Assembly: GCA_963758525.1 (NCBI GenBank)
Contig: CAVWVQ010000003.1
Coordinates: 4,960,001-5,024,000 of the forward strand
Length of the DNA stretch: 64,000 nt
Source of the DNA: an uncultured Phycisphaerales bacterium
Lineage (GTDB): Bacteria > Planctomycetota > Phycisphaerae > Tepidisphaerales > Tepidisphaeraceae
Direction: 5' to 3'
Under the pieces are notes generated by a model. That model made no database searches and was not told the DNA's origin. It saw nothing but the letters and a program-made list of their open reading frames with translations. Of this stretch, positions 48,292-54,822 are shown piece after piece (the stretch's first letter is position 1; each line of letters starts with the position of its first letter). Position numbers and translations under genes: made by a program.

Positions 48292-48482
48292 CCTTCGCGT
48301 TTGTGAGCAGAATTCGAGGGATTTGTTTATCACGCCCCCGGGCAACAATCGGCACGGGCAAATCGACACGGGCAAATCTTGCAATTTTCCTGCAACAGAA
48401 TTAGCCTCGCCGCATGTTGTAGTACGTGTCTGGGCGGCACATGCGTGTTTGAGGCGGCGGCAAATCTTAACGGAGGAAACTC

Positions 48483-49237
48483 ATGAATCTCTCCTGCTCG
48501 CGATTCGTCAGGAACTTTTGGGCTGCAAGTGCGTCCATGCTCATGGCTGCGCGCTGGGCTGCGCAAGCAACTCGGCCGCTCCCAAGGCGCAGGGCTGTCC
48601 GACGACGGTGCCCGCCAACACGATTGCGGCGTCGGCAAGCTCGGTGCGCGGGCTGGGAGAATTGGATACGCCCTCAATGGCGGCGGGGGCTGGAGCTTCG
48701 AAAGAAGGTGCGGTCAATGAGCGCGCTCTGACGGGCGGCGCGAGCGCACGTGGATTTGACTTTGGCGACAGTGGCGGCGGGGGCGCCAACGGCGGACCGT
48801 TGAGCTTCGAACAACTCGGGCAGTTGCTGCAAAGTCTTGGCAGCGCTCCGCAGGTTCATGCCGGAATGTATGTCTACCAGATCAAGGAAGAGTCGGGGCT
48901 CACCTATCCCCTGGTCATCAGCTTGAGCCAGGATCAGCGGGCAGTTTATTTTCTGGTTCCGTTGGTCCCCGTCGATCCGCAGGGCTGGGCCAATCAGGAG
49001 TCGTTGTTCAAACTTCTGGCGGGAAACTCGGTTATCTGCCCGGCATCGTTTGGGATCGTCGGCCAGAAGCTGTTCCTGCTTTTGGGCGTTGCCAACATGA
49101 ATGTGAGCGCGGAGAGCCTGAAGCTCGATATCTCCTATATGTTCGAGACAGTTCATAAGACCAAGCCGCTGTGGGTTCCGTGGATGGGGACCGGCGGCGG
49201 AGGTGGGAATAGCGGCGGCGGCAACCCGTTCCAATAA
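48483..49237 (+). CDS. Putative lipoprotein with CesT/YbjN-like (type III chaperone-like) domain, ending G(n)NPFQ; frameshift near 48550
   Basis: GGAGG before ATG 48483. The signal-like MNLSCSRFVRNFWAASASMLMAA joins ALGC (lipobox) in the 48122..49237 frame. Pattern Y.I..YPLVISLSQD..VYF..LFKLLAGN..F. The fold call is by resemblance only. Confidence 0.65.
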
Positions 49238-49330
49238 TGGTGACGCCGCGATCGATTCGATGATTGGCGCTCTCTGTTACGTACAACTAATAAGTGAAGA
49301 ACTCCTGATACCCCATTTGAAAGGGCAGTC

Positions 49331-50092
49331 ATGAAGACCAATTTTGCACCGGGATTGAGAACCGTTGTTCTGGCGGCGTCGTCCATGCTGGCGGCATCCG
49401 CGGGATGCTCCAGCAACTGCGGCACCAATGAGAAGCCCGTCGCCGCTGCGGCGGCCGCGGTTTCAATTCCCGAAACGCCCCGCGGAACCGCGGCGCAGTC
49501 GAAGTCGGTGGTCAGCACCAGCGCGCGCGATCTGGCGGATTCGCAGCCGGACAGCGTAGTGGCGGGTAAGGGCGGAACACGCGACCTGGATCTTGGGGGC
49601 GGCGGGGGAGGCGGCGGTAACCAGAGCGGGCAGTTGAGCTACCAGGCGCTGGGTGAGGCGCTGCACCAACTGGGTGTGGCGGCGGAAGACAAGCAAACCT
49701 TCTATAGCGTCAAGGTCAAAGCCACCACGCCGGACAACATCACGTGGTCATACCCCGTCACCGTCTCGCTGTCGCGAGACTCGTCGATCGTCTGGGTTTC
49801 GTGCAATCTGGTTCAAGTCGGGGCGAACGGAACTCCCGCTCCGCAGACACTCATCAGCCTGCTTGCCGCCAACTTCCAGATGGGAACCACGTTTTTTTCC
49901 GTCGATACTCAACCGATGCTGATGCTGCAGCACCCCTTTGAAAATGCCGGCATCACGCCAGAGGTGTTGGGCGCGCATCTGAAGCTGTTCTTCACCAATC
50001 TCAAGGCCAGCGAGCCAGTCTATAAGACGCTGACCGGAACCGCCGGCGAGGGCGGCGGCGGTGGTGGTGGCGGTGGAAACCCGTTCCAATAA
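49331..50092 (+). CDS. Putative lipoprotein with CesT/YbjN-like domain, paralog of the upstream gene, ending G(n)NPFQ
   Basis: Signal peptide with SAGC lipobox; WSYPVTVSLSRDSSIVWVS and LISLLAANFQMG..FF. Confidence 0.72.
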   Translation: MKTNFAPGLRTVVLAASSMLAASAGCSSNCGTNEKPVAAAAAAVSIPETPRGTAAQSKSVVSTSARDLADSQPDSVVAGKGGTRDLDLGGGGGGGGNQSGQLSYQALGEALHQLGVAAEDKQTFYSVKVKATTPDNITWSYPVTVSLSRDSSIVWVSCNLVQVGANGTPAPQTLISLLAANFQMGTTFFSVDTQPMLMLQHPFENAGITPEVLGAHLKLFFTNLKASEPVYKTLTGTAGEGGGGGGGGGNPFQ

Positions 50093-50160
50093 ACTGACAG
50101 ACGATTGTGTTAGTGTTCCTGGGGCAGGAACTCTGACGTTCAAAAAGAGAGAGGACTTCT

Positions 50161-52632
50161 ATGCGTCACCTTTCCCCAGGTGTGTGTCTGCGCATTGCTA
50201 TCATCGGCCTGGCGTCACTTGGCGCCTGCATCGCGGGCTGCGCTGGTCACAACAGCGCGGACGACGCGATTCTGTCCGAATCGCCCGGCAGGGATATCGT
50301 GGCGCCCGAGCCCAGCCGCGGGCTTGAACCGCCCGCGAAGCTCGCCCCCGCGCTGCAGCGATTGTCGTCGGCTTCTGAAGCCTCGCGTGACCTGGCGCCC
50401 GCGGATGGCGGATCGGGAAGTCTTCCCCCGGTCAACGAGGTCGGCTATCCCGTTGCCGGCACGAAAGACGTTTTTGATGTCGCGATTCACGTCAAGTCGG
50501 ACGTCGATGTGAAGGCAGTCGCGGCCGCCGGTGCGGATATCCAGGTGCGCCTCGGCAATATTTTGTACGCCACGGTTCATGCGCGCGATCTGTCGCAGGT
50601 GGCGGCGGTCGATGGGGTGGAGCGTATCGCGCCGATGCCGGGCAGCACGATCCCCAGGCCGCCGGCAACTCCCGTTCAGACGGCGCCGCGCGGCGAAGGG
50701 ACGCGAGGCCTGGAGCCTGGCACCGGCGAAGCGGCGCAGTTCGATCATCACGGACTGACCGGGAAGGGGACCATTGTCGGAATCATCGATACGGGAATCG
50801 ACTGGCATCACCCGGACTTTATGAGTCCAGACGGAACCACGTCGCGCATTCTTTATTTGTGGGACGTTTCCGACAATTCGTGGGAGGAATCGAACCATAC
50901 CGTTGGCTCTGAACCGCCCATGAGCGCAAATGGCAAGCCGCTGGGAACTCTGTATACGAATGATCAGATTAACGCAGCCCTGAAGGGGCAAATGAAGATC
51001 GCCAGGACCGACCATGTGGGCCACGGCACCGCGTGCGCGAGCACCGCCGCTGGAAACGATCTTGGGGTCGCGCCCGAAGCGGATCTGGTGATTGTGAACA
51101 GCTATCGCGACGATCCCGATCACCCGTTCAATGACGGGTTTCATGGGGTTCAGGGCGCTTGGTGGATCTCGCAGGTTGCCGCGCAGCGGCATGAGCCGTG
51201 CGTCATCAGTCTCAGTTACGGCGGTCATATGGGTCCGCACGACGGCACGGGTGAGCAGGAAGCCGGGTTCAACGGGGTGGTCAAGGGTGGCGATGCGCCG
51301 GGCGTGGTGATTTGCGCGTCAGCCGGGAACGAAGGGGAGGCGATCATGCACGCGCACGGCCGCTTCGGCCCGCGCCGTCCGACGGAACTCAGGGGCGGGA
51401 TCGGCACGATCACTCAATTATTCATCCAGCAGGAGACTCCCCTGGAGGCAGTGTTCGATTCGCAGGATGACTGGATGCTGCGGATCGTCGGATTGGACAA
51501 ATTTCTCGTTGGCTCCGACGGAAAACCGGCCCGCGTGGACTTCGCCAAGGCCCAGGGAAATGACAAGGACGATCTCGATCTGCACATCATCGGCTCGGAT
51601 AACGTGACAGAAGCCGATGGGCAGAAAATCACCTCGCTGAGGAAAGACAAGAATATCCAGGCCAGCACGCTGCCGGGCGGGAGCGATGTTCTTCTCATTG
51701 ACCTGCCTCCGGGCTCTTACCTGGTGGTGGCGGCCGGCGCGTCTGAAAAGGTGACTCACGGAGTCTACGACTTCTACGTGCCGGACAATTCCAGCGGAAC
51801 CTTTGGCACCGGCGGGGATCACAAAATGGTGATCGGAAACCCCGGAGACGCCGACAGCATCATTACTGTCGGCTCGTATGATTTCCGCAACCAGTGGGAC
51901 AACGCCAGCGGCGCGATGACCCGTTCCGATCAGGTGGACCTGGGAAATATTTCGCCCTACTCGAGCCCCGGCTTTCGGCGCGACGGGGCGGTGAAGCCTG
52001 ACATCGCCAGTCCCGGGCAATACACGATTTCCGCGATGGCCGATGGATCATTAATGTCGAAGGACGGGGCGGCGTTCGTGACCAAAGACGGGAAGCACCT
52101 TGCATGGGCCGGTACCAGCGCGTCGTGTCCTTACACCGCCGGCGTCATCGCGCTGATGCTGGAGAAAAATCCGCAGCTCACTGCCAATCAGGTGAAGCAG
52201 ATCCTTCATGACACAGCGGACCATGACTTCGCGGTGACCGGCGCGGTTCCCAACCCCGAGTGGGGCTACGGAAAGTTGAATCCCGAGAAAGCGCTGGAGA
52301 AGGTGACGGCGGGCGCGGCTGCGCCTCCTGTCGCGCCGCCATCTCCGGTTAATCCGTCGCCGACGCCGCTTCTCAAATCGCCGTTCGCCGGCACATTCAA
52401 GGGAGAGGGTCTCACGTTGGTGTTGACGCCTACAGCCGACAAAACCTTCGGCGGAACATTGCTCAAGGGGGACACCACCTTCCCCCTTGACGCGCGGCTG
52501 GTCGCGTCGCTGCTAGAGGGAACCGTGCACGGCCAGGCGGGCGACTTCACGTTCACCGCCACTTTGGATGGCGATAAACTGATGCTGAACGCCAATGGGA
52601 AGGTCTTTGAGCTGACGCGGCAGGCGCCGTAA
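50161..52632 (+). CDS. S8 subtilisin-family serine protease, CspA-like, probable lipoprotein (823 aa)
   Basis: Triad motifs GIIDTGID, GHGTACAS and GTSAS.P; SAGNEG; RILYLWD and YT..QINAAL typical of CspA-like subtilases; long insertion; IAGC lipobox; Pro-rich linker and small C-terminal domain. Confidence 0.92.
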   Translation: MRHLSPGVCLRIAIIGLASLGACIAGCAGHNSADDAILSESPGRDIVAPEPSRGLEPPAKLAPALQRLSSASEASRDLAPADGGSGSLPPVNEVGYPVAGTKDVFDVAIHVKSDVDVKAVAAAGADIQVRLGNILYATVHARDLSQVAAVDGVERIAPMPGSTIPRPPATPVQTAPRGEGTRGLEPGTGEAAQFDHHGLTGKGTIVGIIDTGIDWHHPDFMSPDGTTSRILYLWDVSDNSWEESNHTVGSEPPMSANGKPLGTLYTNDQINAALKGQMKIARTDHVGHGTACASTAAGNDLGVAPEADLVIVNSYRDDPDHPFNDGFHGVQGAWWISQVAAQRHEPCVISLSYGGHMGPHDGTGEQEAGFNGVVKGGDAPGVVICASAGNEGEAIMHAHGRFGPRRPTELRGGIGTITQLFIQQETPLEAVFDSQDDWMLRIVGLDKFLVGSDGKPARVDFAKAQGNDKDDLDLHIIGSDNVTEADGQKITSLRKDKNIQASTLPGGSDVLLIDLPPGSYLVVAAGASEKVTHGVYDFYVPDNSSGTFGTGGDHKMVIGNPGDADSIITVGSYDFRNQWDNASGAMTRSDQVDLGNISPYSSPGFRRDGAVKPDIASPGQYTISAMADGSLMSKDGAAFVTKDGKHLAWAGTSASCPYTAGVIALMLEKNPQLTANQVKQILHDTADHDFAVTGAVPNPEWGYGKLNPEKALEKVTAGAAAPPVAPPSPVNPSPTPLLKSPFAGTFKGEGLTLVLTPTADKTFGGTLLKGDTTFPLDARLVASLLEGTVHGQAGDFTFTATLDGDKLMLNANGKVFELTRQAP

Positions 52633-52662
52633 TCGGTGCGCAGCCGTACTGATGAGGTTGCG

Positions 52663-54822
52663 ATGACACAACGAACACGAATTTGGCACCCACGGTTGAT
52701 TCCCGCCACCAGCTGCGTTGGGTCGGTTGTCATATTTCTCCTGGCTTCCTCTGCGATGCTTCGAGCGGATGACTCGCCCGCCGGAACGCGCATTGATTTC
52801 CCCACGAGCGACTCGCTTCCCTGGGATAAATTCGGAGTCTTCATCGGCATCGACAGCTATTCAAAGCTGCCGCCGGAGAATCAGCTTCACGGTTGCGTGG
52901 CGGATGCCAACGGCATGAAGGAAGCGTTCGTCCGTCTTGGCGTGCTTCGATACGCAATGATCACCAATGGAGAGGCAAGCCGTCAGGGGATCGGGCGGGT
53001 GCTGAGCGAACTGGTCGATCAGGTGAAGGCGGCCACGACCAGGACAAAGGAGCCGATCACGGTCGTGATCACCTATGCCGGGCACGGATGCCGCCTCAAG
53101 CGGCTGGCGACGGAGGAGGAACCGAACAGTCTTGATTCCTCGTGGGTGGCGGCGGACAGCGACTTTGCCGGAACCCACGACGTTCGCGGATATGAGCTTC
53201 AGGAAATCCACACCCAGCTGGCCAAACTCGGGGCGCAGGTGCTGATCATCTCCGACTCGTGTCACTCCGGCAGCAGCTATCGCGGCACCGACGAGCTGAG
53301 GCAACGGACGTTGCCCATGGCGTCGCGCGGCGGCTTCGCATCCCGCCTCGGTCCGCAGGAAAACCTTTTTCCGCAGTTCGTCATCGATACAGCGGCAGCG
53401 GGAGCAAAGGCATCGGGGAGCTCCGGCGGCCCGCTGCCTGGATTTGTCTTTTACTCGGCCTGCGGCGACCAGCAGTGCGCCTATGAGACCGAGGATGATC
53501 ACGGCCGATCGTGCGGAAGACTGTCGATGGTGATGCGCGTTCTGCTGGCGAACATGGGCGATCAGACGACTTACCAGGAATTGGCCGCAAAGATTGCGGC
53601 GGAGTTCGCGGCGCGCTGGCCGGGCGACGTGAAGCAATCCCCCGAGTTTCATAGCGCCTACGGCAAAGCCGATGAGCGTTTTTTCCGCGGCGGATTTCCG
53701 CCGCCCCACGCCAGCATCGTTCCAAAGAGCATGCACGACGGAATGGTCAAGCTGACGATGGGCAATGTTCTTGGAGTTGCCGAGGGATCTCGCTTCACGT
53801 TCTATAAGGACCTGGACGATCTGGCCCTGCACAAGAATCCGATCGCGACCGGCGAGGCGACGGCGGTCGATCCTGTTACATGCGATGTGCAACTCGAGAA
53901 CGGCGCGAGCGTGCCGGTCAGCGCCTGCGCTGCGATGACGACTGTGACGATCGCGGACTTTGTGGTTGCAACCGAAGGAGACGTGCCGGAATTTATCCTG
54001 GCGAAGCTTCGTGAGCTGGATCATAACCATCAGATCGTGTTGACCGGGCAGCTCGCGAAATGTTCGGCCGTGCTTCGCTACGACGCAACAAGCAAAACGA
54101 TCAACCTCTATTCTCCGACGGCATTGCCCCCCTTGAACCAATCGGCGTCGGACGTTCCCACGTTGCGTCCGCCGATTCCATGCCGCGGCCCCGACGACGC
54201 CGAGTTGGTTGCGTCCAACTTGCTGTACGCGGCAAGGATTCAGCGGATGATGACGCTGGACCACCAGGACGACGACTTACTGAAAGCCGAGATCGCCACT
54301 TCCAGCGGAGCCGTCAGAAGCGAGAATGGCGTGCGCCGGCTCAGGGAAAACCAGCGATTTGCCATTCGTCTGACGAACAAGTCGGAAGACACCAGGCTCT
54401 ATGTGACGCTGTTGACGCTGGATCGAACCGGCAATCTGCAGATCCTTTATCCGCCGCCGGGCGCTGACGCAAGGCCGATCGAGCCCGGCAAGACACGGGA
54501 TGTGACGTTCAATGCAACGATCGACGATCCCTCGAAGCTGAAGCCCGGCGACGCTGAAATATCGGTGCTCAAGGTGCTCGCAACAGATCAGCCGATGGAT
54601 CTTTCCGCGCTGGCCGTCCCTCCGCAGACCGGCGCGGGAAACGTCGCCGGCACGCGCGGCGTCGGCGGGACGGACAATGCGGTCTTCGATCTCATGCGCG
54701 ATGTCCTGCACGGCGGTGAACTGGCGAGCCAGGTTTCCAGAGGAGTTCCCCGAGCCGTCATTTCCCAGCAGTGGGCCACGGATAATCTGATTTTCGGGGT
54801 GGATCAGGCTGAATCGAAATAA
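52663..54822 (+). CDS. Caspase-family (peptidase C14, metacaspase-like) protein with signal peptide and DUF4384-like C-terminal domain
   Basis: FIGIDSY, LHGCVADA, TYAGHG (His 53083-53085), ISDSCHSG (Cys 53260-53262), SAC..Q.AYE. C-terminal LTNKS..LYVTLLTLD.TGNLQILYP..LKVLATDQP. Hydrophobic N-terminus. Confidence 0.9.
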   Translation: MTQRTRIWHPRLIPATSCVGSVVIFLLASSAMLRADDSPAGTRIDFPTSDSLPWDKFGVFIGIDSYSKLPPENQLHGCVADANGMKEAFVRLGVLRYAMITNGEASRQGIGRVLSELVDQVKAATTRTKEPITVVITYAGHGCRLKRLATEEEPNSLDSSWVAADSDFAGTHDVRGYELQEIHTQLAKLGAQVLIISDSCHSGSSYRGTDELRQRTLPMASRGGFASRLGPQENLFPQFVIDTAAAGAKASGSSGGPLPGFVFYSACGDQQCAYETEDDHGRSCGRLSMVMRVLLANMGDQTTYQELAAKIAAEFAARWPGDVKQSPEFHSAYGKADERFFRGGFPPPHASIVPKSMHDGMVKLTMGNVLGVAEGSRFTFYKDLDDLALHKNPIATGEATAVDPVTCDVQLENGASVPVSACAAMTTVTIADFVVATEGDVPEFILAKLRELDHNHQIVLTGQLAKCSAVLRYDATSKTINLYSPTALPPLNQSASDVPTLRPPIPCRGPDDAELVASNLLYAARIQRMMTLDHQDDDLLKAEIATSSGAVRSENGVRRLRENQRFAIRLTNKSEDTRLYVTLLTLDRTGNLQILYPPPGADARPIEPGKTRDVTFNATIDDPSKLKPGDAEISVLKVLATDQPMDLSALAVPPQTGAGNVAGTRGVGGTDNAVFDLMRDVLHGGELASQVSRGVPRAVISQQWATDNLIFGVDQAESK

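Follow-up and report, generated by a model that had tools for sequence, protein, structure and literature searches.

An operon of four genes in an uncultured Phycisphaerales bacterium (Tepidisphaeraceae; GCA_963758525.1, contig CAVWVQ010000003.1) encodes two lipoproteins, a subtilase of family S8 and a C14 caspase-like protease, and a short motif, Arg-[Gly/Asp/Ser]-hydrophobic, recurs in the linkers of these proteins. The window, i.e. the whole stretch of 64,000 nucleotides analysed, comprises positions 4,960,001-5,024,000 of the forward strand. The motif occurs far more often than background predicts and is under selection. It is likely to be a cut site for clan CD proteases, caspase and CHAT taken together, because a fixed Arg followed by Gly, Asp or Ser lies between lipid anchor and domain, at the pro-domain junction in two unrelated serine proteases and, in the caspase, seven residues past the catalytic Cys (Cys+7), beside an enzyme with an Arg-type pocket. 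As to the enzyme responsible, the sequences incline us, with modest confidence, to the caspase as the main cutter, which would cleave these exported proteins after the Arg.

The operon and its arginine motif

The four genes occupy 48483..54822 of the window in one orientation, with junction spacings of 93, 68 and 3 nt, confirming the close, co-oriented arrangement described in the initial annotation of this DNA. Among named homologs, the closest belong to Tepidisphaeraceae and related planctomycete metagenome bins. The genes and their main features are:

48483..49237, + strand: lipoprotein 1, with lipobox Cys at 48560, linker motif Arg codons at 48647 and 48749, a chaperone-fold domain and a Gly-rich NPF tail.
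49331..50092, + strand: lipoprotein 2 (253 amino acids), with Cys26, motifs at R66 (49526) and R84 (49580), a less conserved R51 and an NPF tail.
50161..52632, + strand: lipid-anchored S8 subtilase (823 amino acids), with triad D210, H288 and S653 and motifs at R53 (50317), R76 (50386) and R182 (50704).
52636..54822, + strand: C14 caspase-like protease, predicted to be exported (open reading frame of 728 amino acids), with catalytic domain 60-353 (H150, C209, D90, D207), a small beta-barrel at 355-437, a DUF4384-like Ig-type domain at 545-725 and motifs at R216 (53281, Cys+7), R231 (53326), R674 (54655) and R702 (54739).

The strict form of the motif, [STA]R[GD][LFIV], accounts for 10 of the 85 Arg residues in the four proteins, where 0.56 would be expected (binomial P 3e-10) from the genome-wide rate of 0.66% per Arg, a background derived from crude gene calls of 4,816 proteins. 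The operon ranks best among 4,798 four-gene windows, the best unrelated window reaching P 1.5e-3. The strict motif is likewise rare in polar low-complexity contexts (66 of 8,653 Arg) and in the first 80 residues of lipoprotein-like proteins across the genome (12 of 645 Arg, operon genes included). The enrichment anticipated by the initial annotation is therefore present, and all 13 motifs that it listed were found in the proteins to which it assigned them. Because the pattern was defined on these same proteins, the P values overstate the effect and the held-out tests carry the weight. Ten of the 13 listed motifs are conserved; the weak ones are GRDI, which is not conserved, PRGT, which is mostly PRS-hydrophobic in homologs, and ASRGG. 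Two of the ten strict matches, HARDL in the S8 prodomain and KTRDV in the caspase, fall beyond that first list and probably lie in folded parts.

In homologs, R-[GDS]-[LFIV] occurs at least twice in each of 28/28 distinct lipoprotein linkers (one mis-parsed row was dropped), and 69 of the 77 linker Arg residues lie inside a motif, followed by D in 36 cases, G in 19 and S in 14. The S8 orthologs keep the motif at R53 and R76 in 7/7 full-length copies and at R182 in 8/8, and G and D replace one another there; R44 and R177 lack such conservation. Furthermore, a stand-alone two-domain lipoprotein away from the operon (L133:8644-9942, genome G464) carries the motif before each of its chaperone-fold domains. 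Paralogs of the lipoprotein domain with a Sec signal and no anchor have it in 0/4 cases, one of them coming from a 94% complete genome without a caspase or CHAT match. A genome-wide motif-bearing secretome was not found, since among 811 crudely predicted exported proteins two N-terminal motifs occur only in lipoprotein 2, the subtilase and two unrelated calls.

The caspase, the subtilase and the lipoproteins

The caspase is the single PF00656 match of the genome (56.4 bits; cut-off 21.4). Its N-terminus combines a hydrophobic stretch with an A-x-A-like site near residue 44, retained in homologs, which suggests export. The catalytic H150 and C209, together with D90 and D207, are present in 20/20 family caspases; D90 and D207 align with the Asp residues of the GCVND and ISDSC segments of Arabidopsis metacaspase 4 (AtMC4), and we take them to form the acidic pocket for Arg or Lys. 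The structural model matches metacaspases best (AtMC4, 6w8r, Z 23.6, root-mean-square deviation 3.6, 247 aligned residues; GSU0716, 3bij, Z 23.3). DVRGY of the caspase is aligned to the acidic stretch of AtMC4, in a gapped part of the alignment where R184-G185 is found in 15/20 copies and a D-D-like pair in 1/20. As we take the acidic stretch after the catalytic His to be the metacaspase calcium site, in the caspase this site may be lost.

R216 and R702 are invariant (20/20) and R674 is kept in 18/20 copies, all three in model segments with a predicted local distance difference test score (pLDDT) < 50; the last strand of the DUF4384-like domain comes after the loop that bears R674 and R702. 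R231 is retained in 14/20 caspases, as is the motif ASRGG. The position of R216 extends far beyond the family. In a set of 150 distant caspase representatives less than 50% identical, 141 have a parsable catalytic motif, and in 139 of these 141 the first Arg stands at Cys+7. The residue that follows is G in 58, D in 40, A in 13, S in 12 and T in 7, so that G or D is found in 70%, a preference matching that of the partner linkers. In the 112 full-length distant caspases, [ST]RG accounts for 50 of 644 Arg residues in the C-terminal window versus 57 of 4,482 elsewhere. PCaspase, the caspase of a cascade discussed below, is also said to be cut at Cys+7.

The subtilase has an intact triad, and its PF00082 match falls into two stretches, i.e. 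there is an insertion within the catalytic domain. Its best NCBIfam matches are CspBA and CspC, far under the cut-offs (NF040809, 90.4 vs 1250; NF040808, 85.9 vs 675); the initial description of a CspA-like subtilase thus holds for triad, insertion and nearest matches, and not for membership of those families. The lipobox Cys, C27, is retained in homologs, and R182 lies 28 residues N-terminal to the catalytic D210. Long S8 homologs carry two further motifs in a linker to an extra C-terminal domain, at the point where the S8 protein of the window stops. This extra domain of 275 amino acids (L004:8987-9808 and homologs) has no Pfam name and is absent from this genome; its atlas neighbours are only unnamed clusters in other phyla.

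Both lipoproteins have a lipobox Cys that is retained in homologs. With those of the subtilase and the signal-like N-terminus of the caspase, the export signals originally assigned to all four proteins are present, except that lipoprotein 1 is not one open frame: its ATG (48483) is out of frame with the lipobox and the mature part, with a break near 48545, within the signal peptide. This is a likely assembly indel, because homologs are intact at this position and several other genes of the assembly are also split. Two soil sequencing runs yielded scattered short contigs that leave the place of the break uncovered. In the model of lipoprotein 2, residues 1-97 are disordered and precede a domain of the CesT/YbjN/ExsC fold at about 100-236. 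A Foldseek search with this model returned CesT (5z38, E 1.8e-5), YbjN (6vu7) and ExsC (3kxy), with 29 matches at E <= 0.001, so that the chaperone-like character noted earlier can be specified: the modelled domain has the type III secretion chaperone (CesT/YbjN) fold. No Pfam family matched in 14 members and no NCBIfam name was obtained, one distant homolog reaching 21.7 bits for the CesT Pfam family against a cut-off of 22. The Gly-rich tails ending in NPF (49200-49237 and 50050-50092) are kept in lipoproteins and unanchored paralogs and are rare elsewhere in the genome.

Distribution and the wider module

Among 141 genomes of the family, 8 were found to contain the caspase, 7 the CHAT family, 11 the chaperone domain, and 6 each the S8 subtilase and the outer domain of the kinase; every S8-, CHAT- or kinase-positive genome is also caspase-positive. 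The operon is conserved but patchy: the co-occurrence that the initial annotation had proposed to check is real, within the few genomes that have the caspase.

In relatives, one to four lipoproteins, the subtilase and the caspase adjoin a TPR-CHAT protein, a one-helix membrane kinase, an extracytoplasmic function (ECF) sigma factor, a cyclase and an ABC protein. Loci L016, L018 and L010 have CHAT, caspase, sigma factor and kinase in contiguous order; in this genome these genes form two separate loci, the remainder of the module lying about 490 kb away (G000:C3:4,492,000-4,521,000; loci L038 and L039). There, the cyclase, the ABC protein, three TPR-CHAT genes in pieces, the membrane kinase, the ECF sigma factor and a motif-less chaperone-fold paralog are found. 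An mla-like operon is located in the same region. A Pfam search of the CHAT protein of L005 gave TPR, PDZ-like and CHAT matches; SAVED was not found. The CHAT proteins carry one R-G-[LV] site in 9/10 copies, amid about 50 conserved Arg residues, and in the outer domain of the kinase the near clade retains SRDP, a second subtype having SRDL or GRGI.

This second subtype (L010:7361-21966; loci L099 and L100 of genome G496) has caspases about 40% identical. It encodes an exported trypsin-like protease, with SRGI just before the protease domain, a small exported protein, caspase(s), the kinase and the ECF sigma factor, and in L010 two caspases surround a CHAT-kinase-sigma block. No S8 match was obtained in G496 (81% complete). 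Twenty neighbourhoods of distant planctomycete caspases gave no match to the lipoprotein domain and few strict motifs, which indicates that the four-gene operon is narrow in distribution. In one distant planctomycete (L076; G270:C1:2,386,000-2,405,900), two kinases, an ECF sigma factor, a caspase and a CHAT protein of 2,100 amino acids occur together, and one kinase outer domain has an RDL site.

One further feature precedes the operon:

48374..48421, + strand: conserved 48-bp upstream element, promoter-like, with TGCAAC, about 17 nt and a CG-containing box.

The element was found in 8/10 aligned upstream regions of the operon. With the window site excluded from training, that site scored 70.6 versus 7.9 for the next site of the genome; no second copy was found in the genome, hence no regulon is shown. 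It resembles ECF-type promoters and may be one. A scan for sigma-70 promoters and terminators gave no result above chance.

Flanking genes were considered as module members and excluded, as conservation in this position is lacking both for the upstream adhesin-like repeat genes and for the downstream acyltransferase. Positions 1-48291 of the window hold a long array of genes for secreted repeat proteins of beta-helix and Ig-like (Big_3_5) type, many with frame breaks. Two LuxR-like regulators are encoded there as well, together with a gene that, judged by eye, is TPR/sulfotransferase-like.

Candidate cutters, proposed mechanism and known systems

Taking the motif as a cut site, the following mechanism can be proposed. 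Cleavage at R216, either by the caspase itself or by the TPR-CHAT protein of the module, would activate the caspase. Judging from the positions of the motifs, active caspase would next detach both the chaperone-fold domains and the subtilase from the lipid anchors, with two sites in each, would trim the subtilase at the pro-domain junction R182 and, in long S8 forms, would split off the extra C-terminal domain. The like site in the outer domain of the membrane kinase might conceivably pass the signal to the ECF sigma factor.

The caspase is favoured as the main cutter because the motif-rich genes travel with it and because two precedents point the same way. LcCaspase cuts an alpha-beta-hydrolase zymogen at two conserved R-G sites, which the authors call putative (bioRxiv 2025.11.14.688446), so that there, too, a bacterial caspase cuts a neighbour at a conserved R-G to activate it. 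As far as the available part of that source goes, LcCaspase is cytoplasmic and has a single substrate, a death effector, and the term ‘signal peptide’ does not appear; here, several exported families share the motif, often as R-D, and no toxin domain was found. In the Haliangium ochraceum cascade that comprises SAVED-CHAT, PCaspase, PCc-sigma, PCi and PCk, the CHAT protease cut the caspase only and the caspase cut the rest, according to the portion of the report consulted (bioRxiv 2023.06.23.546230). This system likewise unites a CHAT protease, a C14 caspase, a sigma factor and a Ser/Thr kinase in one module, and provides a model for the R216 step. It differs in that, in the same portion, it responds to cA3 from type III CRISPR and PCaspase is promiscuous, whereas here CHAT has TPR repeats and a signal-like N-terminus in place of SAVED, the caspase is predicted to be exported and the partners are lipoproteins and a subtilase.

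Several points weigh against the caspase as reader of such a code. The characterised PCaspase and PsCaspase are promiscuous Arg cutters that need no code (for PCaspase, see the part consulted of bioRxiv 2023.06.23.546230), and the R-G precedent does not extend to R-D, the commonest form in lipoprotein linkers. The Arg at Cys+7 may have a structural role. In the four motif-less paralogs the linkers are short and leave little room for a motif, and five of the eight caspase genomes belong to one genus. In the near clade, the kinase site R-D-P departs from the hydrophobic pattern, and the likeness of the kinase outer domain to the DUF4384-like domain of the caspase is weak (probability 18%). In addition, Csp subtilases, in the sections of PMC3567191 available, process themselves by position, which weakens the earlier proposal that the caspase activates the subtilase. 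A predicted complex of caspase residues 58-358 with residues 56-100 of the lipoprotein 2 linker scored 0.01 against a mark of 0.32, and is counted neither way.

The presence of TPR-CHAT in the same module means that a second clan CD protease could cut some of the sites. That it is the main cutter of the partners, with the caspase as one substrate among them, is in our view unlikely, yet it is the most serious of the alternatives. CHAT genes flank the operon in L004, L005, L013, L014, L016, L018, L132 and L137, and their own R-G-[LV] site is widely kept. A TPR-CHAT was detected in 7/8 caspase genomes at E 1e-30, and the eighth genome has two other CHATs; gene loss therefore cannot separate the two proteases, and no genome has motifs while clearly lacking the caspase or CHAT, which also counts against a firm choice of the caspase. 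Set against this alternative are the restriction of CHAT to the caspase in the Haliangium cascade, the motifs in the trypsin-like protease, kinase and caspase of G496, where no CHAT lies within the surrounding 36 kb, and the fact that the motif-rich genes of this genome have remained beside the caspase while the CHATs are 490 kb off.

The motif might also be a binding peptide that docks on the chaperone-fold or DUF4384-like domain and keeps the proteins together as a single complex. The lipoprotein domain has, by its model, the fold of peptide-binding secretion chaperones, one motif stands immediately ahead of each chaperone domain, and the hydrophobic +2 residue is strongly retained in partners. 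Docking would not explain why the motif is also found at the pro-domain junctions of two unrelated serine proteases, or why Arg-G/D recurs at Cys+7 throughout a caspase family that is not tied to the lipoproteins, none being present in the 20 distant neighbourhoods; we consider it quite unlikely. Improbable, too, is cleavage after the hydrophobic residue of R-[GD]-hydrophobic by a serine protease, i.e. by the subtilase or, in the second subtype, by the trypsin-like enzyme. Subtilisins favour a hydrophobic P1 residue, the S8 triad is intact, and the linkers of the lipoproteins and of S8 have L, F, I or V at +2; however, the motifs persist in G496 with no S8 found in that incomplete genome, the Arg at Cys+7 is fixed in caspases while its +2 residue varies widely, and Csp autoprocessing sites show no sequence conservation in the available text of PMC3567191. 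Finally, chance or shared ancestry of GC-rich linkers, suggested by a pattern defined on these proteins, by the dependence among close relatives and by three poorly conserved sites among the 13, is very improbable given the rank of the operon among the windows, the linker and lipoprotein backgrounds of < 2% per Arg and the retention of the motif in unrelated protein families and in the second subtype.

With the caspase as the preferred main cutter, the cascade first proposed for these genes is supported in part, namely by co-occurrence, motif selection, the intact dyad with its two Asp residues, the fold and the R-G precedent; it had missed the TPR-CHAT protein, the kinase and the ECF sigma factor. 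A complete extracytoplasmic circuit with one Arg code, in which TPR-CHAT senses a ligand and activates the caspase, the caspase releases the chaperone-fold proteins and the subtilase, and a clipped kinase signals through the ECF sigma factor to the operon via its upstream element, would form a positive loop reminiscent of the complement or clotting cascade. We offer this larger scheme tentatively and regard it, taken as a whole, as less likely than not. The surface location suggested at first has no support over a periplasmic one. The conflict role also suggested at first is unsupported: no toxin domain or defence gene set was found in the module, and PADLOC (2023 library) on six proteins gave only generic subtilase, caspase and TPR matches and weak IetS matches. 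Envelope signalling therefore fits better than conflict, while the patchy spread and the variable lipoprotein number leave some room for the latter.

Among exported proteases, the Arg-gingipain of Porphyromonas, also of clan CD, reportedly cuts lipoprotein pilins off their anchor after Arg; it belongs to family C25 and acts on pilins, whereas here the enzyme is of family C14 and its candidate substrates are chaperone-fold proteins. With the C14 metacaspases and orthocaspases, the caspase shares the fold, the His-Cys dyad and the two pocket Asp residues, and differs by its signal peptide, beta-barrel and DUF4384-like domain. One orthocaspase, MaOC1, self-activates at an Arg without calcium, as stated in the part of PMC7475262 consulted. 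The clostridial Csp proteases (CspB) resemble the S8 protein in having a pro-domain and a subtilase domain interrupted by an insertion; here there is a lipid anchor, and the junction retains R-[GD]-L, whereas the Csp proteases show no conservation at theirs (PMC3567191, available sections). The sigma factor survey PMC7826278 places ECF54 near subtilases and TPR-CHAT, describes ECF25 anti-sigmas with a zinc domain and DUF4384, and finds a kinase at +1 of planctomycete ECF59. These neighbourhoods resemble the module; the word ‘caspase’ occurs 0 times in the main text and the portion of the supplement covered. DUF4384 itself is mentioned, in the literature as far as it was accessible, only in fusions with proteases, kinases, Csx30 and anti-sigmas. 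The literature covered, with few subscription journals among it, yielded no account of an exported caspase whose substrates are lipoproteins and a subtilase. The parts and the R-G rule are known, and the exported multi-substrate arrangement appears undescribed.

The bacterial caspases of the papers cited above act on cytoplasmic targets, and the module described herein names substrates and residues with which an exported one can be tested. It also offers a testable role for extracytoplasmic chaperone-fold proteins and for DUF4384-like domains. A single assay would bear on many uncharacterised loci, as the Arg at Cys+7 is common to a large family of distant caspases. The host is known here only from metagenomes; its proteins can nonetheless be tested in vitro.

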